From contig CM022672.1 of assembly GCA_012295275.1 (NCBI GenBank), forward strand, positions 62,001-126,000: DNA of 64,000 nt. The letters run 5' to 3'. The position numbers and the translations under genes were made by a program. The stretch is from Chrysomallon squamiferum (Eukaryota > Animalia > Mollusca). Every line of letters begins with the position of its first letter. Position 1 is the stretch's first letter. The notes below the pieces were generated by a model. It did not search any database and was not told where the DNA came from. It worked only from the letters and a program-made list of their open reading frames with translations. Of this stretch, positions 11,743 to 64,000 are shown in pieces.

Positions 11743-11942
11743 NNNNNNNNNNNNNNNNNNNNNNNNNNNNNNNNNNNNNNNNNNNNNNNNNNNNNNNNNN
11801 NNNNNNNNNNNNNNNNNNNNNNNNNNNNNNNNNNNNNNNNNNNNNNNNNNNNNNNNNNNNNNNNNNNNNNNNNNNNNNNNNNNNNNNNNNNNNNNNNNNN
11901 NNNNNNNNNNNNNNNNNNNNNNNNNNNNNNNNNNNNNNNNNN
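11743..11942. other. Assembly gap (200 N)
   Basis: Run of exactly 200 N, typical of a scaffolding spacer. Confidence 0.99.
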
Positions 11943-32477: not shown

Positions 32478-32503
32478 GTAAATTTGTCTTCAGACTTCAG
32501 AAG

Positions 32504-35500: not shown

Positions 35501-37397
35501 AGTACATTTGTTGTGAAATACCTGACAGTTGTATAATATGTATACAAAGTTTTGAATTAAGAGGACATGATTTCTGTCAACAGGGGTACAAGTACAACAA
35601 CAAAATGCACAAATGTGTTGTCAGGATCATATGGCATGTCTTGCAACAGTGAGGATCAAAAGTCAGCAGTATTGTCTCCAGTTGAAATGATTGTTATAGC
35701 AGACTGAAGAGATCTGCTTGTTATCACTAAATTAAATTATGCAAGCACTGATTTTGATATTGGGCTAAATGACAAGCTTCATAAACAAGACTACATATAT
35801 CTGAAAAATATATAGCTCTGCAGTGTCTGCTCCAGAATTCTTCATGTAAACAAGCTGTCAGTTGAGCTTGGTCAGTTACTCAATTCATTTTTAGTGTTTA
35901 ACCCTTTGAATGCTGTACTGGTTCCACTATGACCCTAAGCAGTTAAACTAAATTAAGTATACGTACATCAGAAGGCTAATTGAAGTTTCTTGTGTGTCTT
36001 GTGATTGCAACATTAATTATTAGCTATTAAAAGCATTGTTAAGATTTAATAGAGCCATGCTTGTAAATGACTGTTTCAGAAACTGATGAGTCGAATTACA
36101 AAAGGAGCCATTCTTCATCTTGAAGGTCTTCCTAACGACACCACACGTGAAGACATCAAAAATTTCTTTTCTGATTTTTGTCAAGTAGCTTGGGTTGACT
36201 TTGATAAGGGAGACAAGAAGGTAATTAAAATACATATATTTAGCACATCTGTGTTGTTTATTTGCAGATTTCATATTTGTTCTTCAATCATTAACTGATG
36301 CATTAATTGTAGGCTCGGTTACGCTTTGATGAAGAGAATGGTGCCAAATTAGCTGTTGAAAAGGCTCAAGAGGCTAACGATGGTAAAATAGAGATTAACA
36401 ATGCAGAGTTGGTTCCTCGTGTTCTTGAAGGCAAGTACGTTTATAAGTAGCTGTTTGTATATTGATATTTTGCACATACATACACGTATATGGTTACTGT
36501 ACAAACTTTAGTAATTTAGAATGTTTTAGATACATTTGGTTTGTGTAAATACTTTGGAATACTAAAATGTTTGCAGCTCTTTAAAGACATGGTAAACAGT
36601 GAACTGCATTAATTGTTGTAACAGCAGTGATCATTATTCAGGTGAAACCACCAGTCTGGATTTGGAATCCTTTTAAGAACAACACTTGTTTGATATGTAG
36701 CAGATTACTGATATTGTCTATAGATTTTCTATGTTCTAATATTTTGTATGAGTGCAAAGTTTGTAATATTACTAGTAGTTTATTTATAGTTTATGTGAAC
36801 TTTAACAGCGTCTGGATAGTATATATAGTTTATCTATGATTATATTGAACAGAAAAGAGTTTAATTGATGAAGTTTTGTTTCAGGTGATGAAGAGCTTGA
36901 ACACTGGCAAAACATTTTTAGCAAAAAAAATCAAGGTAGAAACAAAAAACGAACACAACCATATAACAAGGGCAAAAGGAAATTTAAACAGGTGAATTTT
37001 AAATTGCAGTATGATTAACGACAATTAAACTTGAATTCCCAGGATTGTCAGACTTAGAATAATATATGTTTAAACTACTTGTGTTAACTGAAATCAGTCA
37101 GTAGTATATATTTTAAATGTTCTAATCTGAAAGCATTTGAGGCATAATACCAGCTGAAAGTAGAAGCAATGAAACAAAAAAAAATAGTAAACATGATGAT
37201 TTTGTAACATATAATCTGTGGTGTAACAACTTTGTTTCTGTTTTTTAGGGAGGTCATGGCAAGAAGTTCCACAGAGGTGAGTAAATGTGCTAATAGGTGT
37301 TTCATACAAGTTTTATTTATCTTAGAAATGATTTTTAATGCTGTTTTATTTTATTTCAGATGGTGAACCCCAAGAGAAACAATCAAAGAAAGACTGA
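32504..37397 (+). CDS. SSB: Lupus La protein homolog (La motif, RRM1, RRM2/xRRM), 13 coding exons, ~416 aa
   Basis: Exons 32504-32722 (..KIVRQLE), 33080-33149 (YYFGDVNLPRDKFL..DEG), 33396-33502 (WIKIETLLTFNRLK), 33708-33809 (KVRRSPSKP..RTVYV), 34170-34280 (KGFP..), 34398-34507 (GSVFVIF), 34854-34925, 35450-35477, 36080-36220 (TTREDIK..VAWVDF), 36313-36430, 36885-36991, 37249-37276 and 37360-37397. Total 1251 nt in frame. AATAAA at 37531. Confidence 0.95.
33150..33395 (+). other. U12-type (minor spliceosome) GT-AG intron in La
   Basis: 5' site GTATCCTT; branch-like TTTTCTTAAT ending ~7 nt before the terminal CAG; no polypyrimidine tract between them. The intron splits the Trp codon of DEG-W. 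Confidence 0.85.
33830..34100. repeat. Minisatellite (~45-55 bp, GTCAGTGTCACATTGTATAGTTATATAAAATAATATTGCTGTTTGT) in La intron 4
   Basis: About 5-6 imperfect tandem copies. Confidence 0.85.
36431..36884 (+). other. GC-AG intron in La
   Basis: Donor AAG|GCAAGT. Only this junction keeps the frame (VLE-G-DEE); the GT 4 nt downstream gives an immediate stop. Confidence 0.8.
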
Positions 37398-38467
37398 CAG
37401 TTTTTTACATTGTTCCATGGATTCATTCACAACTAATCATCATGTTACACTGCATTTTGTAAACATTTTACCACTTCATTTTGTAAATATCTTTATGTAT
37501 GATGTTTTATAAACAAATATTTTACTACTCAATAAATTTAGATTATTTTATCAGAAAATTTCCTTTTTACTGAGTTTTACTAAATAAATTTATTTTATTA
37601 AGAATACAGAGATAAAACAAATTTCAACATGAAAGATATTATTTATGCTGTTTCCTGGGGTTATTATTATTTTAATTCTGTGTACATTAGTTTATTTTGT
37701 TAATTATACACATGCACCTAATTTATGGTGTGTTTTGGAGGGAGTAATAAAATAGATCATTACATTGGTGATGCAGTTATTAGATACACATTGCAGAAAA
37801 CATACTGCAAAGAATCTCCCACTAAATATTTACTTATAATTTAAACCACATTAGAAATATTAAACATTTATTTTTGACATTGTTTTCTAGTGTTTATTAT
37901 TTATGGGTTGAAATTTTGATAAAATATTACAGAAAATTAAAAATAAACATAATCAGTAATTTTTATGAATATGATAGTACGTATATGAAAGCTTTCTATC
38001 AAAAATTTGCAGGTAGGCATTTTGTTTCTAATAGCCGTCCACCTTGGTTTGAACTGAATGTGTTATATACACTGACTGTGTTAGTCATTAATTAAGTGAA
38101 TTATGAAACTGATCACAATCCTTTCAGTAGAACAGTTACAACACAAAACTAATGCACTTCATAGTTTATTTTAAATATTCAAAGGCTTAATAAACATTCA
38201 CTGTTGTAATGATTAACAAACAATTTAATGGCATTAGTTGTCACAAATTTCAGTGTTTTCGTGTTTTCACATATATTAAGGTGTACCACAAGAATCATCT
38301 TTTCACATAACTGGAAACAATGTATCAGAGTTGGGACTCCCAACACAAAAATGCACATTTATTTCTTACAGTATTTCTCAATTCATATCTGTTCAATTAA
38401 GCATCATTTGTGTGAGACAGGCAGAGTCGCTGGTAACCGTTTTCTTGTGTTGAATTTGTCATTTAAA

Positions 38468-38705
38468 TCATTTGTGTGCTGTTGGATTCGTCACTGTGAC
38501 TACCATTTTCTTGTGTATCTTCACGTGCTGGTTGAGTGCGTCACGTCGGGTGCATTTCTTGCCACAGAGCTGACATGTGAAACGTAGAAGACGCTGATGT
38601 ACACATCGAACATGTCTCAGAAGGGTACATCGCTGAGTGAACACTGTTTGGCAAACGCGACATGTGTGACCATTTAGTTGAGATGGTATGTTCATTTCAG
38701 CAGAT
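38468..38705 (-). CDS. Alternative terminal exon ZF-3: C2H2 zinc-finger pair
   Basis: Acceptor TTTATTTTCAG|A (phase 2). Encodes CRVCQTVFTQRCTLLRHVRCVH-QRLLRFT-CQLCGKKCTRRDALNQHVKIH, then a stop. AATAAA (minus) at ~38363. Confidence 0.82.
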
Positions 38706-40044
38706 CTGAAAATAAAATAATATTTAACAGTTATAACCAATTTTTTTTATTTTGCACTAAAGTTGTCAACCAGCAGCCACTTGTATTTCAGAAACAGTAA
38801 TTCAAATGCAATCTGAAGATCATTAATTTTGATTTATGGATTTATTTCTAAAGATATATAAACCCCACAATTCAAAAATGACATATTCATCACTAGTTAC
38901 CTATACAGTATTTGGTTAAATTAGAAATGAAATCGGAATGTTTCTCCTAAATTATTTCCAGTTAAGACTAATTATTTTCACGTATTTCCCACCAAAAAAT
39001 TGCAGTGTGTTCTCAAGTTGTGCTAATTGTAAAATGTAACATGTCTGTCATGTATGTATTTTCTAATCTGAAAGTATTTGCACAACTGGAGGTGTATAAA
39101 AAAAAATGCTGAGCAATGAAATTGTTTGGAAATGTCTAACAAACTTTGATCCAGAAAGCCTTCTCCCCTCCCTCACCCAAGGACAGGGAGAATGGAAAAA
39201 CTGCAGGTTAAATTAGTTGCTTTAATTAAAAACCTTTATCACTGATTTGACTAATTTAGAAATATGACATTAGAATAAAAAGATCTGAAAAAAAGAATCT
39301 GTTTTTGGAGTAGTTATTACCAGAAAAACAAACCATTAATAAAAAGTAAACTGACACTTAGGAGGAGTGGTGGGGTTTTTTAACATACAGTGTTAGTGCT
39401 TAATTATTTGTTTGTTTACCAAATGGATATTTTTTTTTTTTTTTGTAAGACCAATTCATTCTACTTTTTTATTTTTAATACTGAATTAAACTACATACAT
39501 TAGTTTACCAAGAAAAGCTGTAAAAAGAAACAACAAACTAAATAAATAATAATCTAAAAAAAATAACTGATTCTATTTCTTTAAATCATAACAACTTCTA
39601 TACATCTCCAACTGCTTATTATTTATTCAGTGATTTTGTTCTGGAGAAAACAGCTATTTCAAAATTCAGTAAATTGGATTTAGTTAATGTATTAATCTGC
39701 CTGAAGGAGGGTATTAGTGGTTGCTTAATAATATTGTCAGATTAAATACAGAGTTGACAGTCTTAAAAATTTTACTGTTTGTTACTGCTGAAGTTAAAAA
39801 TTACTAACAATCAAATTTTAAATATTTTTATGTTCTTTTAAATTGTTAAGTTTAAGTTGACACTTTTGAAATTAAGAGCATACAATCACAGTTTTACTAC
39901 TAATAATACATAAATATATGGAATAATAATAAAAATGTGTAAACATTTGACTACATGTTGTTTATATGTCTGCATGGTTAGATGGATATAGGTATGTGTT
40001 TGCATGTTGTGTACTTGCTTTAGGTAATCTGTATACGTATGATA

Positions 40045-40283
40045 CAGGTTGACAATCCCTTTCCAGAATTCCAAAATCCAAAACTTTCTGATCATCAGAA
40101 ATAGTATTATGTTACGGTTTTGAGACTGTTTTGGATACACAATTTTATTCAACAAATTATTTAAAAATTATATAAAAAAAATAACCCACTAATGTATAAA
40201 TTGTACTATAAATGAAACCTGTATTCCAAAATCAAAAATACTTCAAGTCCCAAGTGGTTCAGATAAAGGATACTCGGCCAGTG
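40045..40283. mobile_element. Pogo/Tigger-like MITE
   Basis: TA-CAGGTTGACAATCCCTTTCC..AAAATCCAAAA at the left end and CTTCAAGTCCCAAGTGGTTCAGATAAAGGATACTCGGCCAG(TG)-TA at the right. These are degenerate inverted ends resembling, from memory, Tigger4/MER46-type TIRs. Confidence 0.6.
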
Positions 40284-40680
40284 TATGCAACTACATATGT
40301 TCTATATTATTAAGTATGTGGATCTGTGACAAAAGCTCACTCTGAAACACTTCTAATTGCTCTTCAAAAAGGATGTTCTTTAACTTAGTATCTTGTTACT
40401 ATGATCTTATGAATCTATTAATGACAAAGGTATTACTAGTAGAAGACACCACAACTGATGGGCACATAAAAGCAGAACACTTAGTGGGGAAAAAACTTAA
40501 ATATTTATTTGCCCATCAAGTGAATGGTTTTTAACATCATATGCCATGACACCAGTAACAGTAGTCACAAACTACTGCCATGTATCATAATACCAGAAAC
40601 TCTGGTGACAAACTATTGTTGTATGCTGACATTTTTACAGTTACAAGTTTGTTGTTGAGAAGCTTACCAATGTATTGAGA

Positions 40681-40900
40681 TTATTGTCTTTTCACATGAC
40701 GCTTTAGATGTTGACGGAAATAGTCTTTTCTACTAAATGTTCCATTGCAAACAGTGCATCTCAATCGAACAGAACCAAAATGGAAGTTCTGATTGTGTCG
40801 TGTCAAAGCTGATTTATACGTGAATCGTTTGTTACATTGTTGACACCACAGCTTGTCTGATCTGGGCTGTTTGATACCACCTCCACAATGCTGTGGCTTT
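40681..40900 (-). CDS. Alternative terminal exon ZF-2: C2H2 zinc-finger pair
   Basis: Acceptor TTTTTGATTTCAG|A (phase 2). Encodes CQQCNKRFTYKSALTRHNQNFH-FGSVRLR-CTVCNGTFSRKDYFRQHLKRH, then a stop. AATAAA (minus) at ~40509. Confidence 0.82.
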
Positions 40901-41594
40901 CTGAAATCAAAAACCAAAAATAAAGAGAAAACCATGTCTTATCTATGTATCAGAACTGAAATATATTATCCACTAAATTTTACCCATCTAGGTTGTTTTA
41001 TCTAAAGCAAAATAAAACCAAAATTGAATTGCCAGAAAAATGTGTATTATCTTATAAAATATCACCTTGTAACATAAATATAAACTTGTGACATAATCAT
41101 GTTCAACTTGTTTTATCTAGTAAAATATCACCAGTCAATTTATTATTATCTAGTTAAATGTTACCTCTCAAATTTGAATTGCCAAGTAAAATAATCCAAT
41201 CAAAATAGTATGCAAAATATTAACACTTGACTATGTTATCTTTCAGTGGTTAAATATCACTGGCATATTTAATATTATTTATGTGGCACAGTGTCATGTA
41301 TTATTGTGCAGTGTTCAGAGATTTGTAAACCTTTAATATTTTGCTTTTAGTAATTTGGTTGCAAAAAACAAAACAAAATAAAATGTTTAATTTACCCAGC
41401 ACAACAATCAGTATCTGGTGAAGGACATTAATTGAAAAAGCAGCCCTTCCACTACAAACTGTTTCAAAAACTGTGTACTACAGCCTTTATTACACGTGTA
41501 CCAGTAAGGAAATAGTTGTTAAAATAGTTGTTACATCATCTGTTTCTTTAATAGAATATACAAGTTTGGAATTTCATTACTGAAAAATCTGTTG

Positions 41595-41805
41595 TTACTT
41601 AATTCTGTGAGATTTAGAATGTCGATTTAGGTTGTCTTTCCGGTTGAATTTTGCACCACAAATGTTACAAAAAAAAGAAGAGCCTCCATGGTGGACACAC
41701 TGAATATGACGAATGAGAACATGGCGGTAATGAAATCCTTTGTTGCACATGTCACATGTGTAGACTGGAGAGTTGTCAACTTGGCTACACAATCTTTGCA
41801 CACTT
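41595..41805 (-). CDS. Alternative terminal exon ZF-1: C2H2 zinc-finger pair
   Basis: Acceptor TTTCTCTTTGCTTACAG|A (phase 2). Encodes CDMCNKGFHYRHVLIRHIQCVH-HGGSSFF-CNICGAKFNRKDNLNRHSKSH, then a stop. AATAAA (minus) at ~41491. Confidence 0.82.
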
Positions 41806-44800
41806 CTGTAAGCAAAGAGAAACCACTTTTAGCAGCTAGACTGTGTTTGATACATATAATAGACACAATTCTTTTTATTATCTTAGAATTTTATAAACGT
41901 GTCAAGGATTATTTATGTACTGTTATTTTTGTAAATTAAAAACCTTAAGCTAATGTATGCAAAAATTAACGATAAATTCAAACAATTTGTTCAGTAATAT
42001 TTTAGCATTTTGAAAGATTCAATGTATTATATTTAAAATTTCAGTAATTACAAGCGAACTTTGTGGAATTTTGATATCACTTAGAAGTAATGTATGTAAC
42101 CGTTTCATTTTAGAAAAGATTAATCAGTGACTGGCAAAATGTCACAGAAAAATTACTTGTTAAAATGTGTTTTAATGCATATTCTCCACCTTTCTCTGTT
42201 ATTAAACAAATCTTTAGTATGGAAGCTATTCATACCAGTAATCTGCTACCAGGGCTTTTATATTCCAAACATATAACTGCACAACAAAGTTTTAGTGCAA
42301 ATATATCATAAGAGCAAATGTGCTCTACTTGTGTGTAAAACATTACAACTATGTTCTCATAACCACATGTATATATAGGAAAGTAATTTAAATAAATAGT
42401 TATTGTGCAATAAACAGAGTAATGCCAGGTGCATCAACATTCTTGACTGACTGAGGGATTTTACACTACTGTCAAAGGAGGCAGGGGAAAGAATACAGCA
42501 GTGGAGATGACACACTAGTGTAACTCATAAGAACTAGAATTTGACATGTTTATCAAATACAAGTCAGTGTGATGCTGGCATCATTTTAACTGGATGCTTT
42601 ACATACATGGACTGCTCTAGATGAACAACTATTACCAATGTGGTTTCAAATCTGTTATATTTTTCAAGATATTACTGAATCTCAAATGACCTCCCTAGAG
42701 ATGAATTTGTCAAGACGAGCATGTTAACAATGCTGATCAGCAAACAGTCTTGGGCTATATATTGCATCAGTGGTAATTCACAAGTCACATACACATAACA
42801 ACAGTGGTAAAGATGATGTCACCTGTACAACCAGTACCTCAAAGGCTATGGAAAAGATTAGCAAGATGGTCTTTGTACTGTGCAAGCTGCAGGCCCCGGC
42901 ATGTTGAAAATGTTTGCAGAGCTTGTCTTCAGCTTAAGGAATATAAGGCTGTGACGTTTTCATAAACTGAGTTGGATTCTGTAAATTGCAAAAACTTCAT
43001 GGTACAAACTGATTTCAGTGTATGTGTAAATATATAACCTGACTTAATGTACGGATGTAAATATACAAAATCTTGATTGTGTTATTTGTCAATATACAAT
43101 CAGACTTTAGCACATGAGTGATACTTGTTTGTTTTTACAGACGAATGTATGGTTATTATATCAAACTGTTTTCACTGACAAATGTATGGTTACTCTAACT
43201 TTTCACAGACAAATGTATGGTTACAATTAATTTTACAATTAAGATCACAGACTGTATAAACTATTGTTTAGTTCTCATGCAACATGCAGAACCGTTCTTG
43301 TGTAACCCATTTTCCATTGAGCAAATGTTATTGTGTTAAATGTTATTTTGCTCATCTTTGGAAATAAAATGCAATCACTATGTCAGCAACATCCTTTCCT
43401 GCTCAGTTTGCTGCACTGATACTTGCACAATACTTGTCAGTGGTGCATAGCTTATCCCAGTAAAACCAACAATGAATCCTGACCTTGTCAACTTAGAAGC
43501 TGTAATTTCGGGAGTAGCTTTCTTACAGTTTTCTTGTTTTGTGCAATAAATGAGACTAAAATGTTTTAGTAAAAGTTAGTCGTAATTACACTGTACTATC
43601 ATATATACAGATGATTCCATTATTACAGATAATGAAAAAGCTCCATTTAGGTTAACCAATTTATGCAACTGTACTGCATAATCACTTAATCAGTTAATGA
43701 CTAAAAAAACAACCAAACTACTACAATGTTGATCATTTAACAGTGTTGTCTTGGATTTCATATTACTATTATTAAAAACATCAAAACATTTTTAAAAAAT
43801 AAATAAAATGTTTGCCATCAAGTAGATATTTCTTCCTCTATTTCTTTACTCTTGATGATATTATAGACAATGGAATTTTAGTACAAAAACTACATTTTCA
43901 TATAGTGGGCTCTTTCATAAATATGCCGAGTAATCTTTTAAATGAGGTACATCAAAGAAAAGATGGCAACATTGAGGAAAAGCATCTGTAAGTCTTAGAA
44001 CAACATTAAAACTGTGGAAACTATGAATGATGATTGTGTATAATGTATAATTATGACATCTGATAATTCAATTAGTACATGAAATTTCTACTTTGAACTA
44101 CTACAACTGTTAAGTATGATCAACAAACAAGTATATTTTGTTGTTGTTCAGTATCAAAATGATCTTTGAAAAATAAAAGTGTTATGTCCTTCAACAAGTT
44201 ATGTTAGGATTAATGGTATTTTTCTGTACCAAGACCATGCGAGGGCATAAAAATAAACATTACTGTTTAGAATTAATACCATCCTAGACTGCAAGTGTTT
44301 TAGTACTGGTAGTTGCAGAGAGCCAAATTACTATGTTTGTGTTGATAATGCAGTTTTTAAAGTTTTTTTAGATACATGCATTTCCTATTGCAAATTGTTT
44401 TAAATGCAAGATGTTATTATCATTTATGGACTTATGAAAAATAATTGTTGACTTTGTGTTAATTTTTTGAGTGGATTTCTTTTTTCAATAATGAATAAAT
44501 ACTTCATTATTAATAAGATAGAACATCTAAACCTTCTTGTGAATCATTTTCAGCAAAGGAAGCCTCCATTCAGGCTTCATCATGAGATCATGATGATCAA
44601 ATGACCAGTTTAAGTAAATCAGAGCCTTCGAATTCAATGGAAATGCATTGTAAGTACTTATTCTGAAGTTATTCTCGATTTTTCTGCTCTGAAATACCAC
44701 AGAATAAAGGCCATAATTATAGAGGCATGTACTTTGCTAGGTATCACACCTGCAGGTATTACGAAACAAAGTGGCAAAAATCACGGGATGGTTGGTAAAA

Positions 44801-45730
44801 ACAACTTTTAATGTACAAAAATGGCATTTTGATGTTAAATGCACTACATGTTAAAAGTAGATGTATCAAAGAGTTATTAACTGCCAATAATATTTGATTA
44901 CTCCAAAGCAACCAAAAATTGGTACTTTTAGGACCACATTTTAGGCAAAAGCTACACACTGAAAACTGGTTACTGTCAGTTAATGCTTTTCACATGTTCT
45001 TCATGTTAACTGAAAACATGTAGAAATAATGCAATTCAAAACAAAATAAAAACCTATACATTCAAAACACAAAGAAATATATTCAAAATATAAACAAATA
45101 TATTCAAAACAAAAAACAAAAAAATACAAATACATATTGAAAATAAAATAAAACATATATATATATATGTTCAGAATACAAATAAATGTATTGTAAATAA
45201 GTGTATCTGAAAAAATAATAAATTTACTCATGGTCAAGTGTCATGGATTCACTTTATGTAACTAACTTAATTTTCTGTGACAAACGCAATTTCTCAACTC
45301 CATGGAGTTGTTTTACAAGAGCTGGTAATTGGTAATTCGGAAGAAAAGGAAAAAGCCAAAACAAGAACCAAAAGTGGTATCATTCAGTCAGGCAAGGAAC
45401 CAATGTTTTTGAAAAGTATAGTAAGCCACTTTCTGTTTGATAGGATGTAATGTGTAATTAACCTGTGTCAGTAACATTTCATATACATACAATTTAAATT
45501 CTTTAATCTGCCCTGCATGCAGATTCTTATTTTATTTTGGTTCCCCATATGACCTTACTCGTAACTCTCATTATCACTAGACAAAGTTATTTGAATATAT
45601 GTAATATATGTTTTACTGACTGTATTATTATCACATCTGTATAATAAATAATTAACTTGTATCTTCACTTGTGTTGTTTATTTCTTTAATGGATAAATAG
45701 AATTATTGATTTATATAGATTGCTGTCAAT

Positions 45731-45947
45731 TTATTTTTTTAAGTTCCTTGTTAGGTGGCCATTTAAGCACCCTTTTAACCTAGACTGAGTCTTAATGAAA
45801 CATCCAACATATTTTATGGTGTGGTACCCATGACATCTTGTAACTATGCATTCCGTGACTTGAATGTATTGTATTTGTTGTTGTTGTAATTTGAATTTCA
45901 GTGTACAAGAGATAATCAGCCTCTGTGGAGAAACTGTCATTTGTAAT
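45731..45947 (-). CDS. Candidate diverged terminal exon (phase-2 acceptor, 72 open codons, finger motifs eroded)
   Basis: TTTGTTCCTACAG|A TTA CAA ATG.. stays open to TAA at 45731. Size matches the ZF exons. The C-terminal RCHGYH..GC..SRLKGCLNGHL only loosely resembles a finger pair. Confidence 0.3.
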
Positions 45948-46304
45948 CTGTAGGAACAAATGGTTACATGCTAGTGTATATTTACTTACAAACAAAAGAT
46001 AACACTGAGTACCTAATGGCAGAATAAAAGAAGTAAAGATGTGATTATAAGAAATATTACCTAAAAATGACTAAAACAGATTTAGTTAAATAATTACTTA
46101 CTCACTACTCCACTGATCAGGTATCTGTTTCATTTCTAACAAAGACTTCTGCAAAGAAAGCAAATGAGCACAATATTTAATATTCTGCATTACATATATA
46201 CAAATTCACAAATGAAAATGTAATTATTTTCCTTAAGTATATAACAATTCAACCTATACATGTTTACATCTACCTAAAAAATGATATGGACATTGTAGGA
46301 AATT

Positions 46305-46840
46305 CAGTGTAACTGTTGTTTGACATTTTGTAAATTGTAGAACACATTATAAATGGTGTTTCTTATTATGTAGATTGTAGAACACACAATGTAACTGCTG
46401 TTTCATTCTATGTTGATCGTAGAATACACATTGTAACTGGTATTTTATATTATGTAGATTGTAGAACACAAAATGTAACTGGTGTTTCATAGTATGTAGA
46501 TTGTAGAACATACAACATAACTGGTGTTTTATATTACATAGGTTGATGAACACAATATAACTGGTGTTTCATACGTAGATTGCAGAATGCTAAATGTAAC
46601 TGGTATTTTATATTATGTAGATTGTGGAACACAAAATGTAACTCATATTTTATATTATACAGATTGTAGAACACAAAATGTAACTATTGTTTCATATCAT
46701 ATAGATTGTAGAACACAAAATGTAACTGGTGTTTTATATTATACAGATTGTAGGATGTTAAATGTAACTGGTGTTTCATTTTAGGTGGATTTTACAATGT
46801 AACTGATGTTTCTTATTATACAGATTACACAATGTAACTG
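46305..46840. repeat. Minisatellite (~40-42 bp, TGTAACTGGTGTTTTATATTATGTAGATTGTAGAACACAAAA)
   Basis: About 13 imperfect tandem copies. Confidence 0.9.
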
Positions 46841-47254
46841 AGAGTGGGGCTCAAAACAATTTACAATAACAGTATATTAAAAACACATAGACAAAAACAA
46901 TGGATAATGAATTAAACTAATAATACTTAAAGAGTTCACATATAGTATATGGGTGGTGAATGCAAATGGAAAAGTTGAATTATACTTTGATTGATTTAAG
47001 AACTGACTTTTAAAAAGATGTTTTTGAAACCCTGTTTGAATGTGGACTTTATGAAGCAAATGTCAAATGAAAATTGTTATTTATCATGGATGCAGTATGT
47101 TTTGAATGAAGTTTCAAACAAAACAAGCTAAATTTTTCCTACATTTATGCCATCATCTGTTCCAATAATTATTTCAAAGGCATTGCCACATACTATTAAA
47201 TAAACAAATATAAAAGAGGCTATTTTTACCTAAAATACAACAGTTGAGAAACTA

Positions 47255-47382
47255 AAGTCATGTGACCATAGATTTTTCACTTTTTCATGCATCAGAAGTA
47301 AACTGCTGAAAATGTTCACATATTTTGTGCCGAAGGACTCGTCTGTACAGTTTATAACTAACATTTTGCCCAGAAGTGATGT
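47255..47382 (-). pseudogene. Probable decayed zinc-finger-pair exon
   Basis: Acceptor TTATTTACAG|A, then F-W-A-K-C*, a frameshift to YRRVLRHKICEHFQQFTSDA*K, and a further frameshift to KNLWSH. This parallels LIRHIQCVH..FFCNIC..DNLNRH with Cys codons mutated (TGG, TCT, TGA). Confidence 0.45.
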
Positions 47383-48229
47383 CTGTAAATAAGCTTCATG
47401 ATTTATTAACCAGAAATTTATTTACAGAAATATTTCATCAAAGTTTGTTACTGCTTTTGGGAAGAAAAGACATTTGTATTTAATACACAAATGAGGCTAT
47501 GATTCAGAGGTTTTGTCTAGTCAATATTTTTAAGTTTAGCCATGAGTTTAAATAGTAGTGCTGAAGAAGGTTTTTCCTATAAAAAGGTGGTGGGTTCCAA
47601 GGCACTTTTATTAAGATTAAATGCTTTTTTCACTATATGATGTAACATTCCTGGTATAAACACATATGTAATACCTCAAGATAAGATTTTCCATTCATGC
47701 AGTTTTTATTCAGATAGGACCTGAAACAAGAGAATAAATCAAGTGTTCTTAAAGTCAGTAAAAATATGTCAAGAGAGTATGACTGATGACTAATCAGGAA
47801 CTTTGGAGTACCTATTAATTATGTACTTCTTTGTTTTTCAGCTATGAAGTCTGCAGGCTCAACTTTGGCTGAAATTGGAGATTATTTCCTTACTGGAACT
47901 TTGACAGCCTCTGATACAGAACCAAATCCAGCACCTACCCCTAGACCTTGGATTATCCCTGCTCCTCAGCCTATGTTTGATGTCATTATGTGTTTATCAC
48001 TGGCATTTACTTTGTGAATGAGTTTTGAATGAGTCTTACTCTTATCTTGAAGTGGTATAATGTCTAATTACCTGCATCATTCACAATTGTTAATATAACT
48101 ATAGATTCATTACAAATTCTAATTTGGAATCAAATAGTCTTTATAAGTTTAACCTTTACTATTTTAGAAGCTCAATGTAGATTCCTAAGCATCCCGTGTG
48201 TTCAATATTAGACTGAGCCATGGCAAAAC

Positions 48230-49245
48230 ATTCCAAATGTTTGATGGTTTGAGTCACATGACAAAAGCAATTACAACAAGACTAATGGCAAACAATTAGA
48301 CATTACTAAGTCCATAGTAGACGTCTAACATCAAAAGTTTTGGAATACTTCAATGTATCAACTTCTGGTCTACCTAGAAATGATTTGTTGCAGTTTTGTA
48401 TAGATGGCCCTTCAGTGAATTGCACTTTTTATGACAAAATTGGACAAAGAAAACAAGAATGAGAATGGTATGGCCTATTGAATACTGGGGCTGTGGCCTC
48501 CAGGTCTTTCATGTGGGCTTCCAGACAAAGAAAACAAGATAGATTGTGGTCCTAATGACCTTCTCTCCATACAATCTGTTTAAAGATACTCAGCCAGACA
48601 GTTGTTTCTGTTCAGAGAAATCAGTAGGCAATTTTGGTGAAATGTGTTGGACATAATCTTGGAAAAGTCTTGTCTGAATTCCAGGTCAATGGCGAGTAAT
48701 CAAGAACACAAAGTAAAAATTCTAACACCTGTTGATGTAACAGGTTCGTGAACTGAAGACTAGTTTCTAGGACTTCAAGGTTGAAGGTAATACAGTTGCT
48801 CTGTTATTCTATGTATATATATGGGTAAAAAAATGCAATTTGAAAAGTTGTATTAAGTAGTTGTTATGTTGTTGTTAGTTTCCCAAGGTCAGAAATCTGT
48901 TGAGATGGGGGGTTCTCTCCCAGATGAGGACAACATGCTTATGGCACGGAGACAGATTACTGAATATTCTGAATTGGTAGGACTCTAGGAGGAATACAAA
49001 AACTATCCTTAGTTCCCAAAGCCTGACAGTCCATCAATATCTTAAAGAAGAGAAATGAAACAAATGGCAAGAACTCATCCAAATAAAATTTAAAAAATAA
49101 GAAAAATGTTCTAGAATCGGACTCAAAAAATCTGATCACATTTTTAGGAAAATATGCAGATGAGGCTCAGGCAAAAATTGGCAAAACTAACTATACTAAA
49201 TTGATAAAATCGAATGCTCTCAAGAACTCTGCAAAACAAAAATAA
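48230..49245 (+). mobile_element. Decayed hAT-like DNA transposase relic (intronic, antisense to host gene)
   Basis: Frameshifted peptide LPRNDLLQFCIDGPSVNCTFY..LLNTG/CGLQVFHVGFQT (DG plus CxxH-like region) at ~48365-48530, and KYADEAQAK..LIKSNALKNSAKQK* at ~49150-49245. Many stops. Family assignment is from motif recollection. Confidence 0.5.
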
Positions 49246-50629
49246 AAGGGGGGATGGGGGAACAGATCTGTAGATTTTTTATTTGGATACTTGTCTAACT
49301 GGATATGAATAAGCTAAGAGCTGGGCTAGCTCCAACCATGTTAAATCTTCTGTTAATTTTCAACTACTTTACTGACGTACTTCTGGGAACTTTGTTCAAA
49401 GTTGTTTGTCACTGACTGCCAACACTCCTGATAAATTCTGTGTTATACATTATTAAAATAAATTTTTACATGCAAACTAGTTTGTATTTGTTATTTCCTA
49501 TCTTGTTTAAAGGGACATTTTCCATTAAACACCAAAGCAAATCTCACAGCTTCCCATAGGGAATCCCTATGAATTGATTTTGTTGTCCATAGTTTGTTAT
49601 GAACTGTGTAAGGCTGTGGGTTTGGACACAAAGTTAATGTCTTCTCATTTTACATGGCTATACAAATGTCAAAAATGAAAATATTGAATAAACAAAATTT
49701 GGTATAGGACTGAACCTTGATTACAAATATAACACAATGTGGAAATGCTGTCATAGTTATATGGGTATCTTGCTTTGTTAAAATTCACTGCCTTTTGAAT
49801 AAGTCCAGTTTGTTCCAAAATATTAATTTTGTGGTGTATGTCACTTGTGCTCCCTAGTCTGTGTAGCATCCGGTTTTGCCAGATATATTCACTTAGTTTA
49901 CTCATTTAATCTCTAAGTATTGTCCTTAAAAAGTGGTTATGTAAGACATTAAAAGTCCTAAAAAAGACAGTTAAAAAATAGTATGTATCCTGTTTTAAAC
50001 AGATTTATATGAACAGCACATGCCAAAATGTTTAAAACTTCTTAAACAATTAAACACATCTCCATGAATATCTTGTGTCAAAATGTTTAAAGATTCTAGC
50101 TACTGAACAAATCTACTACATTATCAGATCTGTAAGAACATAAATGCTTTATGATAATGTATTAATATATTTTTATCAAATTTCATTATAAATAAGCTTC
50201 ACCATTAAATTTGACTTGGACTGTGGTGCAAACACATGTTTATTTAAGATACCAGAGAAGATCTCATTTATGTAAAATTCATAAAAGAATATGTTGCCTA
50301 ATTAAAACAAAAAGAAAAGAGGATTTTTTTATGGCAAAATATAAGACAGGTAATATGATTTATGTAAAATAAATGTTTCCTTTTGTAAAACAGAACAAGA
50401 TATGTACTTTTATAAAATTAAAGAAAAATAATCATATTTATTGCAAGATAGAGGTAGACCACATCACACAAAAAATATCCAAAACAAAAATTATATCTGT
50501 GTAGTACAAAAGAAAGAGGAAGATATTTATGTAAGTACAATTTAATAAAAAAAACAAACAAAAAAAAAAAAAAGGTATGTACAATATAAATAAGAGATTA
50601 TGTGAAATAAGTGTCTTTCAGGGAAACTG

Positions 50630-50971
50630 TTAAGATCCAAATTCTACGGACTGTTTCATTTCTCTGCTATTTATCACTTTTTTCATCTCAGGCCACCTCT
50701 CCAGGAATTTATAATACCACTGTCTGCTCACTCCCTGGTTATGACCTCGCTTACCAAAACTCACTGCAAATTTTGATGCCATTTGGAGAACAAGAGCTCT
50801 GCTGAGGCTGACACCTTTAGCAGCTGATGATAGCAACAAAGAGCAAAACTGTTTTTCTTCTTGCTGTGTGAGAATCATGCGTCTATCATTTAACCTACTG
50901 GCCCAGACATCTTCTCCTACTGCTACTGAAGAGTCAGTGTGAAGATTAGTGTCTTGCATAACAAGACCAAC
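50630..50971 (-). CDS. Exon 3 of the multi-isoform factor; read-through encodes a CENP-B/pogo-type helix-turn-helix and stop; candidate internal phase-2 donor after 50895
   Basis: Acceptor TTTAACTTCCAACAG|GTT, phase 0, matching the exon-2 donor. LTQQEEKQF..GVSLSRALVLQMASKFA..K..GVSRQWYYKFLERWPEM fits the HTH CENP-B pattern. AG|GTTAAA lies within W-A-S-R. Confidence 0.75.
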   Translation of the reverse strand, partial: VGLVMQDTNLHTDSSVAVGEDVWASRLNDRRMILTQQEEKQFCSLLLSSAAKGVSLSRALVLQMASKFAVSFGKRGHNQGVSRQWYYKFLERWPEMKKVINSREMKQSVEFGS

Positions 50972-51923
50972 CTGTTGGAAGTTAAAAATCACACATCAGC
51001 AGCTCCTCTCTAACAGCCACTTTCTGCATTAACTAGTATATTCTTCTGGATCCCTGGCAACATTTTTCCACCAAACAACAAATAATCAAATTACAAATTT
51101 GTATTTCTCAACAATTCAAAGCATACAAAACCATTACAACAGTGAAAACTAAATATTGTCTGACATACGTCTTAAGATAAGCTTTGAAATATTTCAACAA
51201 AATGTGTGGATGCAAATGCTAACTTTACTTACTTAATGAATAGACATTTGTAACAAACAGATTAAATGAATTGGTATTGCTGAAAACAGCATCATCTGCC
51301 TTTAATTAAAATATTTTCGTAACTTTGGAAATGTAAATCCTTAGAAATTCCTGACAGCATAAAGAAGTCAAAGAATTTAATGTTGTTCAATAAAAGTGTT
51401 TCCACAACAATACATATTCAAGTCATCACAATAAACTGTAATACATGTATCATACTCACTGAAACAATAAGCCTCAACACAAACCTATTGTTAACAGTGA
51501 CAAATGCTGACAAATATATGTACTTGAAAAATATACATTACTATTTTGGATATTTATACTTTAAACAATGAAAACACTTCAAAGTATACAAAATTCATAA
51601 CAAATGCACTTTTCTTTTCATTATATTCATAATCTTAATTATAATTTTCATGTATTTAAATAAAAAGATAATAAGTAATCCATCTGTTGTGTTAAATTAA
51701 ATGAACTCCTTCAAGTATAAATCATCCTTTTACAAGGAACAGTGAAACATCTTACATTAATATTTTACATTTTCTGGGAAGGATTAATTAGTAATATGTA
51801 TCTTACAAGTATGCTTGTCACACAGTAAACTGTAAAGATAAGGAGCTGTATATTTAGTATAGTATTATTGTTTATGAAAAATAAAACCAGTTGTAAAAGT
51901 TCATTGGTTATATGGTGACATAC

Positions 51924-52189
51924 CTGAGATGTTGCATCTGAAACATCACTGTGAAACACTTCTGAAGAATCAAAATCATCAGCATTAGAATAAAAGACAG
52001 TGTCTGAAGCTAATGTCACACTGTCATGCCCATCTGTAAGTGGATTATCTATCACCAGGTATGGAGTGTCTTCTTCCTTCTTAATTTCCATTTCATTTGT
52101 TTCACATTTTGAATCCAATGCTTCTGAGGTCTCATCTGCAGCATCAGTATTTATAACACAGAAGTCATCTAACACAGAAGTCAATTTAT
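51924..52189 (-). CDS. Common exon 2 of the multi-isoform factor (acidic linker with IKKEED motif)
   Basis: Acceptor ATATTTCAG|AT (phase 1, matching the exon-1 donor); donor CAG|GTATGT (phase 0). Encodes DKLTSVLDD..EMEIKKEEDTPYLVID..DATSQ. Confidence 0.75.
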
Positions 52190-52969
52190 CTGAAATATTT
52201 CATATAGACCAATATCAACATTTACCAAGCTAAAAATATTGTTTACATTTCTAGATATAATGCCATTTTGGAGACTTATTTAAAACAATGTAGTCAGTAA
52301 CGCTTATTTCAATGTTAAGTTTTTGTTCCATGTCAAAATCACAGACTGGAGGTATAAAAGGATTATTTCATGTTGGGTACTAAAACTTTAAGAAAGAAAT
52401 ACTGAAAAAAAAAGAAAAATAAATAAATGAAAAATGAATTACATTCATGTTAGCAAAACTAAAAACAACAAAAGCAGTGGAAGCACTACAATTGTTAAGT
52501 AAAATGAACACTAAAGAGTTAAATTATCTATTTCTCAAGTCATCAAAATGCCAGATTATTCACTGATTAAGTTTGACAAACTAAACATGATGAAAGATTT
52601 TTAAGATCAGTGCAGCATATCAGATTGCAAGATCCTGTAAATATTTTCATGATTTTTATCAAAGGCTGAACATGTATTAGTTGATAATTTTCACAAATGC
52701 AAATAAATTTTTGCTATATATTGCTCATGGTAAAAGTTTATTTAAGTTTAAAAAAATGATTTTAATATTTTAGTGCTCATGATAAAAATATATTTAAGTA
52801 TAAATAATTTTAATTTTTTTTTTTTTTTTTTTTTTTAGGGTGGCAACTTATTTTTCAAATTTATTATGGTGCTACTAATTTTAATTGAGGGCTTCCAGAA
52901 TTTATACCCAGTTGGAAAAATTAAGGTTAAAGCCTGCAACCTCTATATGCACTAACTACCCATGTCATC

Positions 52970-53300
52970 TAGAGCATAGATCAATTTATCTAAAATATTT
53001 TATATCTAGACCATTAAGAGAATTTATATAATCTTCTAGCACAGACGTCAGTTTATCTGATATATTTTATATAGACCAATAACAGAACATAGCTAGTCAT
53101 AAAACATAGATGTCAGTATATCTGAAATATTTTATATAGACCAATAACAGTATTTACATAATCATCAAGCACAGACATCTGTTTATCTGAATTATTTTAT
53201 ACAGATCAATAATAGTATTTACTTAGTCATCAACACAAATATCAGTTTATGACATATTTTAAACAGATCAATAACAGTATTTACCTAATCATCAACAGAC
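52970..53300. repeat. Minisatellite (~63-65 bp) homologous to the exon-2 acceptor junction
   Basis: About 5 copies of CACAGA.GTCAGTTTATCTGAAATATTTTATATAGACCAATAACAGTATTTAC, matching 52173-52226. Confidence 0.8.
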
Positions 53301-53902
53301 AGGACCTTCTTTTTTCTTCATTCCTTCACTTATTTAAGGTTATGCAATTCAATACACACTTTTTAAAAAACCCAGCATATTCTCATATTAATACAGAGTA
53401 CAGAAATCAATCAATTGTAAACTATATTTTCTTGTGTCAGCTACACATTCATTTCCAGCCAATATTTTATATGCAATCAAGGTATTCGGTTGTAAACGGC
53501 AGCTGATGTTCAATGATTTATGGATCAGTTGTTCGCAGGTTAGTGGCAAAATACTAAGTATAAAAACTAACAAATATACATACTCACTACTCAGGAAAAC
53601 TTCAAATAAATATATAACTATATAATTAATAAATACTGTGCACATTATTAAGCTCTTCTTTACAAACAATAGGTGCTAGTTTGGCATGTGATCTACACAA
53701 TCTAGTGATCTACACTGACCAAATTCTATTCTGGTGTGTCAGCTAGATGCTTATTTGAATAATTATTTTTCACAGCATAAATGATCCAAATTTTCCTTTT
53801 ATTATGAAGTCATAATTTATAGGAACAAGGGCTAAAAGGTATATACATTTGAATAATTTTATCAATGAATTGAGCTAACATCTGCTAGAAACACAAGAAA
53901 AA

Positions 53903-54047
53903 GATCTTCCCTTTTCTTTGAGCTTCCTTCATTTCACCACCACCACAACAATGACATTGTTCAACATTTTCTCCATCATCTACAAGGCCATTTCTTCATA
54001 AAAATGTAACTGCCTTCATCTTGTTGATAAAAATCTTTAGCCGACAT
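53903..54047 (-). mobile_element. Possible Merlin/IS1595-like transposase N-terminal fragment
   Basis: Minus-strand peptide KAVTFL*RNGLVDDGENVEQCHCCGGGEMKEAQRK resembles the A..FL...GL...CxxC...M zinc-ribbon start of such transposases. Short, with a stop. Confidence 0.3.
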
Positions 54048-55112
54048 CTTAAGGGTTCTTTAGAAATTTTAAAGTAAATGAACAAGTAAAATCACAGAGT
54101 GCAATGTAGATTAACTACCACATCTATTCAGAAATAAAGTCTGCCTGGATGTGATGTTTTTATAGATGCATCAAGCATTAATCCTAACGGATTTTAATAT
54201 CTTCCTATCTAATCCATTTCTGATACTATTTAATCTATTTCTGAAACAAACTAGGTCAAATCTGTTGCATTACTTGACCTGTCTGCTATAAACAGACATT
54301 TTCTGTTAAAGAAATACAATTATCCTTTGTCATCATGCTCTTATCTTAAAGAAATGTTCTAGATTTGTTTTGATTTATTTATTTTTGGCTAGAGTGTGCC
54401 CTTTAAGTAGTCACACACCAAAATAGTTTCATGATGTACAGATCACACACCAAAGTAGCACCAAACAATAAATGTGTCACTAGTCAGACACATTGCATTC
54501 AGAGTAAATTAAGGGGACAGACAAGGAGGTAGTTATATCAGCACTGTAAAGTATTGGATTATGAAGAACACTAGAGGGATGTGGTTTCCTTTCTAAAGGA
54601 TGTTGATCATATATTTTTTGTTTTAAATTAATACAATTTAAAGAAAGGACAAATATCCTTAGGTATAAACAAAATTAAGTTAATAGGAACAATTCAGTAT
54701 ATATTTATTTTGTAAAGAAGAGCTGCTAACTACAGACATCATTTATTTCATATATCACATACAAAGATAAAAGGAATGATACTGATATGAAACTGAATAA
54801 TCACAAGAATTGGGAAGGAGGTGCTCTCTTCAGTATGAATACTATTTGGTGATCAACAGTTTATTCTGTAAGAGCAGAAATTAAAAAAATATATAAAATA
54901 CTTCTTCACTTTTCTGTATTCCTCAGAAATATAATACAAGGAAATCTTAAGGATAAACATGAAATAAGACTGAAGAGGGATGGAGTTGTCAAGCTCCAGA
55001 GATGGGAACCTTCCTTCCCACCAAAGATGAATAAATTTATAAAACACAAAGCTATTATGAAAATACAAATTCATTATTTATATATAATTTAATATTTCTA
55101 ATGAATTCAAAC

Positions 55113-55719
55113 CTTTATTGCTGATGTTATTATCTGTCCAGCTGCTGTCCATCAACCTGCATTTCCGTCTGTAAGTCTGACTGCTGTCTGAAAGCCTGCG
55201 TTTCAGTCTGTCAGTTTGATCTACTGTCCGAGCTCCAATTTGAACAAAAGTATTTTGATGTCCAGTTGATTCATTTGAATTAACTACTGATGATTTTCTC
55301 AATTTTTGCTTATCATGTAAAATGTTTTTTCTTCTATTTGTTTTTGAAGAATGATTATCGAGGAATGTTAATGATAGTTCATTTTCACAATTGTTAGTTA
55401 CCTCTGCAGTAGTGACAGGAAACAGAATACTGGAGTTTCTGCTACAGTTTTTACTGTAATTTCCAGAATCTCTTTTTGAAACAGGAGGCTCTTTTTGGAG
55501 TGTCTTGAAAGCTTTTGTACAGTAACTCTCACTAATAACATTTCCTGAACTCTGCAACATTTCACTTAATACATATCTTTCTTTTTTATGATTATCTATC
55601 TCAACTGCCAGATAACCACTCAGCTCAACACACTGATCAAATTCTATATATTCTCGACAAAATTTCTGCATTGCTTCAACAAATGAAGTAAAGAATTTCA
55701 CGGAATACTGTTTATCCAT
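55113..55719 (-). CDS. Common first coding exon of the multi-isoform factor: conserved uncharacterised N-terminal domain plus low-complexity region
   Basis: Long ORF MDKQYSVKFFTSFVEAMQKFCREYIEFDQCVELSGYLAVEIDNHKKERYVLSE..ISESY.., an upstream acceptor (exon starts 55849) and donor AAAG|GTTTGA (phase 1). The paralog at 63942 shows only synonymous changes. Confidence 0.82.
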
Positions 55720-56027
55720 GATGTCACAGAGTGTCAGTCTCTCTTTGCAACAATTGAGTCAAACAGCAATGTGCATTTACAAAAAAACTGTTCAACAAGA
55801 AAAAACAAATAACATCATCCAAAATACCTTTACTTGGACTTAACAAGATCTGAAAACAGATAAATGAAATCTGATTAGTTAAATATAAAAACTGTATTAT
55901 TATGTCTCACTTCCTTACAAGAGTAAATTGTTTTTTGGGGGGAGAGGGGATGGAAGGAGCATACATTAACTTCAAACCAAGATGAACACTAGTCAACATT
56001 TTTTGTTAACAGTCTGCTAAAATAAAA

Positions 56028-57345: not shown

Positions 57346-58591
57346 GCATCTATCTGATATAGGTGATTTTGATACATTATCTCTTAAGAAAACAGTAAGG
57401 TAAGAACTTTATAAAAAGGTTTTCAAATGGAACCTAAAACAGTAAGCCCTACAAAATAACCTTCCCTGCTAACAAGCAAAATAATACCGTACATGCAATT
57501 ATTTCTTGTGAAAAGTGAATAGTGGCTTACCATTTCCAAAATTGAATTTAATGCTAAAATATATTCATCTACAAGATTAATTTAAAAAACACAATAAATA
57601 AATAAATAAAAAGTCAGTGCAGTAATCTGAAGTATCAGTTAAAAAAGAACATCGAAAAACATTCAGGGTTTGACATTTCTTTTCTCGTATAGGAAAACAT
57701 CTAATTCCATTTTTTTTTTTTTTTTTTTTTTTTCAAATCTCAATTCATCTTAGCTTAGGAATGAACAGATTTAAAAAAAAAAAGCTAAAAAAAAAAAAGT
57801 AATTAAGTTGCAATGAAGAAGGAAAAAAAACACCTTGTAATTTAAAAATAGATGTTTGTCCCTAAATGTTGTGAAATGTATCATAACTAATATATAACCC
57901 AAAGCTGGAGATATTGCTAAATCGAATAAGCAATAAATAATATAGCTTTACAAACAGCAATATTCAGTCTACCAGATTTCCTTCATCTTGCTGAATTTAC
58001 TGTTTATCTTCTGAAAATTTAAACAAGTCAAACGGTAATTCCCTGTAACTTAGTGACAAAATAGTGGCACTATACATGTCAGTTTAACGGTATGTCACAG
58101 TTATATGTGTATGCAGCTAAAATCAGCATAACAACTTATCGATAATTTTCTACAGATGGTTGTTTTTCTTTTTCATATCAGATTAGCTTAATTCATTCGT
58201 TAATAAAATGCCAAGATAATACTAATTTACTGAGACCTTAATGTCTTGACTCCATATATATAAAATACTGAAGCAGTATTTAAGTTCCTTGGCTGCTCAA
58301 TTTATGCTTTCACTAACAAATATATAAAATCATAAATTTCTGAAAAATAATCCTTTTTATATTTTTCATGGCTTGTGTAATAGTTGACTTTGGAGATACT
58401 GATTTATTATTATTTTTATTATTATTATTATTATTATTATTTAGCTGAATAATATTTGTTCTTCTAGATCTATGAATTCTTAAGGAAAGTTGATTTTAAA
58501 CATTGCATGAATGTGTATTTGCCTAATATAAAATTAACACTTCACAAAAAATTTATGTTATCTTTTATTATCGTATTTATTTATTATAATA

Positions 58592-58639
<48 letters not shown>

Positions 58640-62692: not shown

Positions 62693-63941
62693 TATTTTGT
62701 TGATTTCAATAAATTAAAATTTGTTGTTGAAGGGTCCAAAGGCCCAAGTTGTGAAGCATGGTTATTTGATAAAGATGATTCATAAAAGATGACAGATCTT
62801 TGCAACTATAATTTACACATTCACAGTCTTGTTTACAAGTTTATGCATTATTATATTTGTGCTTCTTAAACAATATATTCAGCTCACATTTTGTCAAAGT
62901 ATACAATTGCCATTTTTAAAGATGTGTCAGTCACATGATTAAATTTGAAAAACTGGATACGCATTTCCACTTAACAATCTGTAACTGAACATTCGATTGA
63001 ATGGTAGGCTTAGAAAATGAGTTATTATCTAAAGCTTATCTAGTTGTTATGACAAAACAAATCTGAAAAATGTAGGGGAAGCAATGTAGATCATTTTCAT
63101 TTGTGATACTTGATTGTTAATTATATATAAAATGTCTGCCAAAATTGGTCTAAAATGTCTCTTTCTTTTTCAGGCACTTTTCAGAACAATTTAATGCAAA
63201 TATGAAGGGTAGCATTAGTAAATGTTTCTTTTTACTGCTCAAAAATGATCTTTTAAATGAAACATGAAAGAAGATATGATCAGGGATGTAAATCTGCAGA
63301 AAACAAAAAATTGGCACATTGACTAAATTGCATATTTTCTGCTGCCACACGTTGTCTTAAAACCTGTCCTGCCTTAAGCTCTAAAAACTGCCTTTTCATA
63401 ACTTGAATTACTGGCAAGATCACTAGCAGTCACCTAGATCAAGTTATGTTATGAATTCTCATAATTACAATGATGGGTGGTTGTCACTTCCAGAAAAAAG
63501 CCAGCTATAGCAATTGATATATCAGAATGAAGAGATACGTTGTAAACAATAAATCCTAAAATATACATTATCGTAATTTATAGATCTGAATGAAATTCAT
63601 TTTTCTTTTCTCTGATATACATACTCTATTATGCATTAAAAAAAAGTAATAATAATAATTTAGTTGACTTGCTATCAAATTTTTCATTACTAACATTATT
63701 TTGTTTTGTTTCATTTTTTTCTTGCAAAAGAAAATGTTATTTAGAACTAAACAGGTGATCACATTTATTGAATTTATAAATAAAATATTTTGTTAGGCCC
63801 TTGACAGTATTTGTGTGTGTGTGTGTGTGTGATTGGTTTTTTTTAATTATTATTTCTTTTTTATTATTTTATACAAGATATTTTATTTAAATTTTAATTT
63901 AAAAAAAATATTTCTCTTCCAGATTTTTGTTGAAATATACA

Positions 63942-64000
63942 ATGGATAAACAATATTCAGTGAAATTCTTTACATCGTTTGTTGAAGCAATGCAGAAATT
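63942..64000 (+). CDS. 5' end of an inverted paralog of the 55719 gene (runs off window)
   Basis: Acceptor TTTCTCTTCCAG at 63922, then ATG GAT AAA CAA TAT TCA GTG.. = MDKQYSVKFFTSFVEAMQK, identical in protein to the minus-strand gene. Confidence 0.85.
   Translation, partial: MDKQYSVKFFTSFVEAMQK

Follow-up and report, generated by a model that had tools for sequence, protein, structure and literature searches.

Background

Genes that combine a constant head with swappable ends have so far been described mainly from arthropod BTB genes. In the available sections of the papers on the closest systems, Drosophila lola produces 20 isoforms with a constant BTB domain, 17 of which have unique finger ends (10.1101/132027; PMC11426971), mod(mdg4) produces at least 30 isoforms (PMC11426971), and trans-splicing is described for both genes (PMC4387717). 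The same sections of PMC11426971 report that the Tramtrack-type BTB is absent from Mollusca. Another DNA-binding fold, DUF3504, is derived from Crypton recombinases, and the two isoforms of KIAA1958 differ in their DUF3504 exons (PMC3212892, sections available). Here we describe a gene of the mollusc Chrysomallon squamiferum that lies on the minus strand of a 64,000-nucleotide stretch of DNA (GCA_012295275.1, contig CM022672.1, positions 62,001 to 126,000), which we call the window and within which all positions are numbered. Our reading, to which we assign a probability of about 0.82, is that this is a single gene in which shared front exons are spliced to one of several endings, yielding regulators with a common head and likely different targets.

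The constant exons and the hub exon

All exons of the locus, which runs from 55849 to about 38000, follow one another on a single strand and fit into 18 kb. RNA evidence was taken from four runs of one study (X1 to X4) as assembled contigs over 37900-55950, and statements about joints refer to the 15 of 16 that are listed. The first coding exon (55113..55849) has its ATG at 55719 and encodes a head domain of about 75 amino acids (aa) at 55719-55489, followed by a polar linker; its acceptor at 55849 was placed on sequence alone. The coding part of this exon, 55719-55113, is 607 nucleotides (nt) long and ends in phase 1, and its donor at 55113 was joined to 52189 in all four runs. Constant exon 2 (51924..52189) is 266 nt long and brings the cumulative phase to 0, and both of its joints were found in 4/4 runs. 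Thus, the original prediction was right that 55719-55113 and 52189-51924 are in-phase common exons.

Exon 2 encodes an acidic linker with the motif IKKEEDTPYLVID, which looks like a SUMO site and, after it, a presumably SUMO-binding-like hydrophobic stretch. Among the relatives described below, 12 of the 15 multi-isoform groups have a pattern of the IKKEEDTPYLVID type in their constant part, against 3 of 32 single proteins, a count that is not an independent test because the pattern was composed after examples had been seen. In the preceding intron, a 65-bp tandem repeat (4.9 copies, 52980-53297) is similar to the stretch at 52150-52230 that holds the exon 2 acceptor and the codons following it (89% over 47 nt), and therefore the start of exon 2 may derive from a repeat unit.

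In the zinc-finger isoforms the constant part ends with a 47-nt exon at 46102..46148, which we call the hub. Its acceptor was used in the joint 51924>46148 in every run, and its donor at 46102 (GA/GTAAGT) serves four acceptors, with 46102>41805 found in 3/4 runs, 46102>40900 in 2/4, and 46102>38705 and 46102>42978 in one run each. The listed joints of the gene carry GT..AG ends on the minus strand, and they fall exactly at the predicted zinc-finger acceptors and in frame with the hub. Since the hub turns phase 0 into phase 2, the three zinc-finger exons are all in phase 2. A 42-bp tandem repeat (11.7 copies, 46308-46791) lies immediately upstream of the hub acceptor. The hub had been missed in the original prediction, which instead had exon 50971 as the third common exon and the donor after 50895 feeding the zinc-finger exons. 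That exon is skipped in 51924>46148 and encodes a helix-turn-helix ending, and the three acceptors for which junctions from 50895 had been proposed were joined from 46102 instead. The arithmetic of the proposed products of 386, 389 and 395 aa can be reproduced, but the RNA-based products via the hub are of 376, 379 and 385 aa.

Several other joints were set aside. Those at 54072/53971, 45737/45551, 41371/39444 and 53604/37947 have short sides of 20-29 letters and are mostly in repeats or non-canonical. The joint 54440>54272 has GT..AG ends, is 167 nt long within intron 1 and was found in 4/4 runs with a short side of 23 letters; perhaps it comes from a repeat transcribed elsewhere.

The alternative endings

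Three minus-strand exons follow the hub, and each has a YAG acceptor in phase 2, two C2H2 fingers, its own stop and a downstream AATAAA, as had been claimed for them and as sequence and Pfam confirm. The first (41396..41805) has its stop at 41597-41595, gives the 376-aa product and has a donor in its 3' untranslated region (UTR) at 41396. The second (40668..40900) stops at 40683-40681, gives the 379-aa product and has a donor at 40668, 13 nt past the stop. The third (38001..38705) stops at 38470-38468, gives the 385-aa product and carries the distal 3' UTR, into which RNA contigs extend to 38036 (X1) and 38001 (X2). The open phase-2 frames behind acceptors 41805, 40900 and 38705 are 69, 72 and 78 aa long, and Pfam found two zf-C2H2 fingers in each, with E values of 1e-8, 2e-7 and 3e-8, respectively. 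AATAAA occurs at 41491 after the first stop, at 40509 after the second, and at 38363 and 38170 after the third. A six-frame scan outside the satellite (see below) found exactly three C2H2 finger pairs, at 41756-41607, 40845-40696 and 38662-38513. Three two-finger open reading frames (ORFs) were observed in 37500-51900, and none of 300 base shuffles yielded even one.

The mutual identity of the three endings is only 35-43%. In the standard numbering of finger positions, the base-contact positions -1, +2, +3 and +6 are YHVR+RDNR in the ending at 41805, YSAR+RDYQ in that at 40900 and QCTR+RDAQ in that at 38705. The three finger pairs differ at these positions, so they would likely have different DNA targets. 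When ending 41805 was searched against PDB with phmmer, generic C2H2 proteins were found and Tramtrack was absent among the best 60 of 121 matches.

Further endings were sought in 51900-37500, where 85 acceptor-like sites (at least 9 pyrimidines in 14) were found, with five phase-2 and two phase-0 frames of 60 aa or more. The three of these frames without a known domain, at 45947, 45922 and 40087, showed no C2H2 pattern and no joint among those listed, the Pfam scan not having been applied to them. Similarly, tblastn of 174 tails from relatives against the window gave no extra cassette below E 0.03. At 44533-44703 on the minus strand, one tail with DUF3504, from a Haliotis relative, has a weak tblastn match (E 0.088, 24%) that could be chance or a decayed ending.

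The fourth ending is of another type. Exon 50630..50971 (minus strand) is entered in phase 0, and when read through to its stop at 50632-50630 it encodes a CENP-B/Tc5-type helix-turn-helix (PF03221, HTH_Tnp_Tc5, E 5.2e-6, above the Pfam cut-off) and gives a 404-aa product. The joint 51924>50971 was found in 2/4 runs. In X1 the contig depth is 13.3 at this joint, at 50896 and at 50681 alike, and a contig ends 58 letters from 50681, which suggests a single contig from the joint past the stop. The exon stops after 113 codons and PF03221 is its sole match, so there is no DDE catalytic domain such as a pogo/Tc5 transposon would have. From an internal donor at 50755 the joint 50755>46148, seen in one run, returns to the hub out of frame and gives 373 aa with the helix-turn-helix cut. 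The minor hub acceptor (42960..42978, minus strand) adds five codons before a stop, and its 312-aa product has no DNA-binding domain.

It had also been predicted that the endings cannot be chained. This is true for the protein, but at the RNA level the joint 41396>40900 was found in 2/4 runs and 40668>38705 in 3/4, both beyond the stops, and the latter is well bridged, with 233 letters on its shorter side in X3 and X4. Since AATAAA at 41491 precedes the donor at 41396, the endings may still have separate poly(A) sites. Loose A-rich contig ends at 41383 were considered as poly(A) sites and rejected; there is a genomic T-rich tract there.

Relatives of the gene in gastropods

Three homologue searches gave 128, 177 and 17 matches, with the best 120 listed for each of the first two. 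Among the matches listed and named are Gigantopelta aegis, three Haliotis species and Batillaria attramentaria. We fetched 192 relatives and grouped those with identical first 150 residues, which gave 65 groups. Two or more members were present in 15 of these, all from G. aegis, and together they comprise 142 proteins with an identical constant part of 284-394 aa within each group and about 140 different tails. The G. aegis counts are lower bounds, two of the clusters being represented by the best 15 of 25 and the best 15 of 16 members. All 15 groups are on one contig of 91,665,651 bases, and sister genes retain 13-19 different tails.

Pfam was run on 24 chosen relatives and found C2H2, HTH_psq (PF05225), BEN and DUF3504 tails, mixed inside single genes; in 6 of the 24 no family was found. 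The listed Haliotis and Batillaria proteins mostly end in DUF3504. In G. aegis LOC121383032 (P0093-P0099 in our set) the choice is nested, with a common first part of the BEN domain and at least seven different ends. From the G. aegis data we infer two routes of growth for the family, the duplication of entire genes in tandem and the gain of 3' exons, transposon-derived folds among them.

The G. aegis protein XP_041368373 (P0004) is the best match for the exon 1 linker, exon 2 and ending 40900, and this ending is 55% identical to its tail over 56 aa. A tree built from 14 finger pairs resolved nothing but the pairing of 40900 with P0004 (support 86/87). Judged by sequence, XP_041368373 is likely the orthologue of the window gene.

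The central claim of the original prediction was a constant non-BTB N-terminus with alternative DNA-binding ends in a lophotrochozoan, and it is upheld by the hub joints to three exons, by the lack of a BTB match described below and by gastropod relatives with many tails. The system is also larger than was predicted and is a multigene family.

A probable single gene with a choice of endings

As the RNA joints show, exon 1 is spliced to exon 2, and exon 2 either to the phase-0 helix-turn-helix exon or to the hub, whose donor selects acceptor 41805, 40900 or 38705 and rarely 42978. Since endings are chained past their stops, the first ending entered supplies the stop and fixes the C-terminus, and those downstream can be added as 3' UTR. 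The ending is thus chosen in the manner of graded exon skipping along a chain, which possibly leads to a common distal poly(A) site.

Several observations weigh against this reading. The shorter side is only 28-30 letters for most hub joints and no listed contig runs head to tail, the joint 46102>38705 comes from a single run, and all of the RNA is from one study and in assembled contigs, with introns also at depth 1-9. The isoforms counted in G. aegis are RefSeq models. P0004, the likely orthologue, forms a cluster of a single protein and lacks the closing histidines of the second finger in its model, and because of this the window cassette may be poorly conserved. With regard to the role of the head, both of its AlphaFold2 models are of low confidence.

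Among the alternatives the one that survives best, although we consider it improbable, is that just one or two endings give functional protein and the rest are leaky splicing or decaying duplicates, some of them cleared by nonsense-mediated decay. The unproductive joints at 42978 and 50755 and the single listed protein of the likely G. aegis orthologue speak for it. So does the stop of chained ending 1, which lies 199 nt ahead of the donor and would make this form a target of decay under the 50-55-nt rule of nonsense-mediated decay; the chained ending 2 form, with its stop 13 nt ahead of the donor, would not be a target. However, the frames and the Cys and His residues are intact in all three finger pairs, and that they are intact at such low mutual identity implies long retention. 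Moreover, the joint to 41805 is the commonest of the hub joints to the fingers, and the sister genes keep their many tails.

A less probable alternative is that the 3' exons are transcribed on their own and joined in trans, as happens in lola and mod(mdg4) of the fly. Contig joints do not separate cis from trans, trans-splicing is known in both fly genes according to the sections of PMC4387717 cited above, and in X3 the contig depth, a poor measure, is 35.6 in the chained 3' exons and 17.1 in the constant exons. Against this, the exons of the window gene are ordered on one strand within 18 kb, and a lola-like U1-binding motif (with at most one mismatch) was not found on the strand of the gene; the single match elsewhere is at chance level. 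The remaining two alternatives concern the constant part itself and are taken up with it.

The nature and extent of the constant part

Residues 1-77 form the head, in which the hydrophobic fraction is 0.44 as compared to 0.26 in the linker. Over 77 aa the window head and G. aegis proteins are 96% identical, which suggests that the animal is probably a gastropod near Gigantopelta. The head is conserved at 60-96% among the G. aegis and Haliotis proteins and at 43% in Batillaria, and the linker is not conserved. Two cysteines, C21 and C67, do not vary among 29 aligned heads. Pfam found no family at E<=1 in exon 1 of the window gene and no relevant family in 21 aligned heads, the best being DUF6272 with E 0.005 in 2 members. 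PDB sequence searches with the head gave nothing better than E 0.56.

AlphaFold2 gave two low-confidence models of the head, one with a predicted local distance difference test (pLDDT) score of 57 and a predicted template modelling (pTM) score of 0.37 and the other with pLDDT 53 and pTM 0.40, in which a helix at about 7-24 is followed by three or four short strands. Fold searches with these models gave best Z scores of 4.7 (pilins, with a root mean square deviation of 4.0 over 68 residues) and 3.0, with none at Z>=5, and Foldseek gave E>=0.76. These matches are unclear, and they neither point to a new fold nor set the head apart from BTB. In the ESM Atlas feature search, the window head gave only bacterial matches below 0.9 and the Batillaria head gave none. 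A structure-based Atlas search with the head from Batillaria led to four mollusc-only clusters of 51-101 members with template modelling (TM) scores of 0.78-0.79, which is below the bar of the tool and therefore a lead only; two of the four are C2H2-rich and contain proteins named isoforms X25 and X9.

The head could be a highly divergent BTB, or ZAD, and the gene a true homologue of the lola family. The identical position and layout and the low confidence of the fold models leave a very small probability for this, slightly below that of trans-splicing. None of 21 head sequences matched BTB, ZAD, SCAN or KRAB at E<=1. The head is also only about 75 aa long, with one predicted helix and then strands, and it has two invariant Cys, not the four of a ZAD domain. 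Finally, no Tramtrack-type motif is reported for Mollusca in the available sections of PMC11426971. Instead, we tentatively suggest, by analogy and at somewhat less than even odds, that the head is a putative protein-interaction module that would likely serve self- or hetero-oligomerisation among paralogues, a BTB-like job.

The weakest alternative, in which the common part ends with exon 50971-50895 and the donor of this exon is joined to the zinc-finger exons, fits the frames on paper and could appeal to the one joint of 16 that is not listed, but it is hardly credible since the donor is absent among the 15 listed, the exon is skipped in all four runs, the phase is already explained by the hub, and three runs have a different letter at 50896, adjoining this weak donor.

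Neighbourhood of the gene

A paralogue with the same head domain starts head-to-head with the window gene at 63923..64000 on the plus strand, with its ATG at 63942 and a 5' UTR exon ending at 59911. In tblastn its start is identical to relative P0006 at 19/19 residues, and the start of its ORF matches that of the window gene at 53 of 57 nt. It is expressed, since X3 contains a loose contig end that aligns at 63923 and at 59901-59911. A promoter region common to both genes may lie near 58000-59900. Within the first intron of the paralogue, at 61430-62610 (plus strand), is a transposase remnant interrupted by several stops and a single frameshift, which from its motifs we take to be Tc1/mariner-like.

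On the downstream side, a convergent multi-exon gene at 32450-36400 (plus strand) borders the array; it contains an RRM exon, and we presume it to be La-like from its resemblance. A prohibitin-like Band 7 gene is at 27570-29700 (minus strand). Positions 1-16951 are a satellite with a unit of 374-378 bp, whose orientation flips across an N gap near 11742-11941; its second block is more uniform (98% as compared to 89-91%).

Comparison with known systems

In the literature covered (titles and openings of abstracts, and mostly open papers without supplements), we found no description of the head domain or of this layout in molluscs, although tables of gene families could list it, and the isoforms are present in RefSeq without remark. 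The available sections of PMC3212892 do not mention the head domain alongside DUF3504 genes. The splice architecture is well supported and the family is large and apparently undescribed. With its four endings in 18 kb, the locus is small enough to be a tractable model for the choice of endings.

The same DUF3504 that is found in the Crypton-derived genes ZMYM2-4/WOC, QRICH1, KCTD1 and KIAA1958 is joined to the head in Haliotis, in Batillaria and in some G. aegis genes. The window gene differs in having no PF12012 in the six exons scanned, and the best tblastn match has an E value of 0.088. The likeness to CENP-B/pogo-Tc5 and Pipsqueak proteins lies in PF03221 in exon 50971 and in the PF05225 ends of relatives; unlike them, the window gene has a lone helix-turn-helix on one swappable exon of 113 codons with its own stop.

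The Tramtrack-group BTB genes have constant exons and alternative DNA-binding 3' exons, and so does the window gene. Judged by sequence, in which no BTB is recognizable, it nevertheless appears to lie outside the Tramtrack-BTB family. Like mod(mdg4), it has common exons and many alternative DNA-binding ends, whereas mod(mdg4) combines a BTB of the Tramtrack type with mostly FLYWCH ends and is obligately trans-spliced (in the sections available), none of which was found in the window gene. With lola it shares constant N-terminal exons and alternative 3' exons with different C2H2 fingers. It differs from lola in that its head is not BTB by sequence, one ending has a helix-turn-helix fold, the 3' exons are chained via their UTRs, and the layout is repeated in at least 15 paralogous groups of G. 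aegis. In addition, the U1-motif search gave no sign of trans-splicing in the window gene, with contigs blind to cis and trans.

The mollusc family could be the counterpart of the arthropod Tramtrack-BTB system, an analogy whose chances we consider not quite balanced. It would have a putative oligomerisation head of about 75 aa, a clustered family, and up to 25 swappable DNA-binding exons per gene (C2H2, Psq and CENP-B helix-turn-helix, BEN and Crypton-derived DUF3504), with well over 140 regulators in one snail that possibly act in combination via the head. If this is true, a mollusc family that follows the logic of the arthropod genes but is built on a different head would stand as a clear example of convergence in gene design and as a source of hidden transcription-factor diversity.

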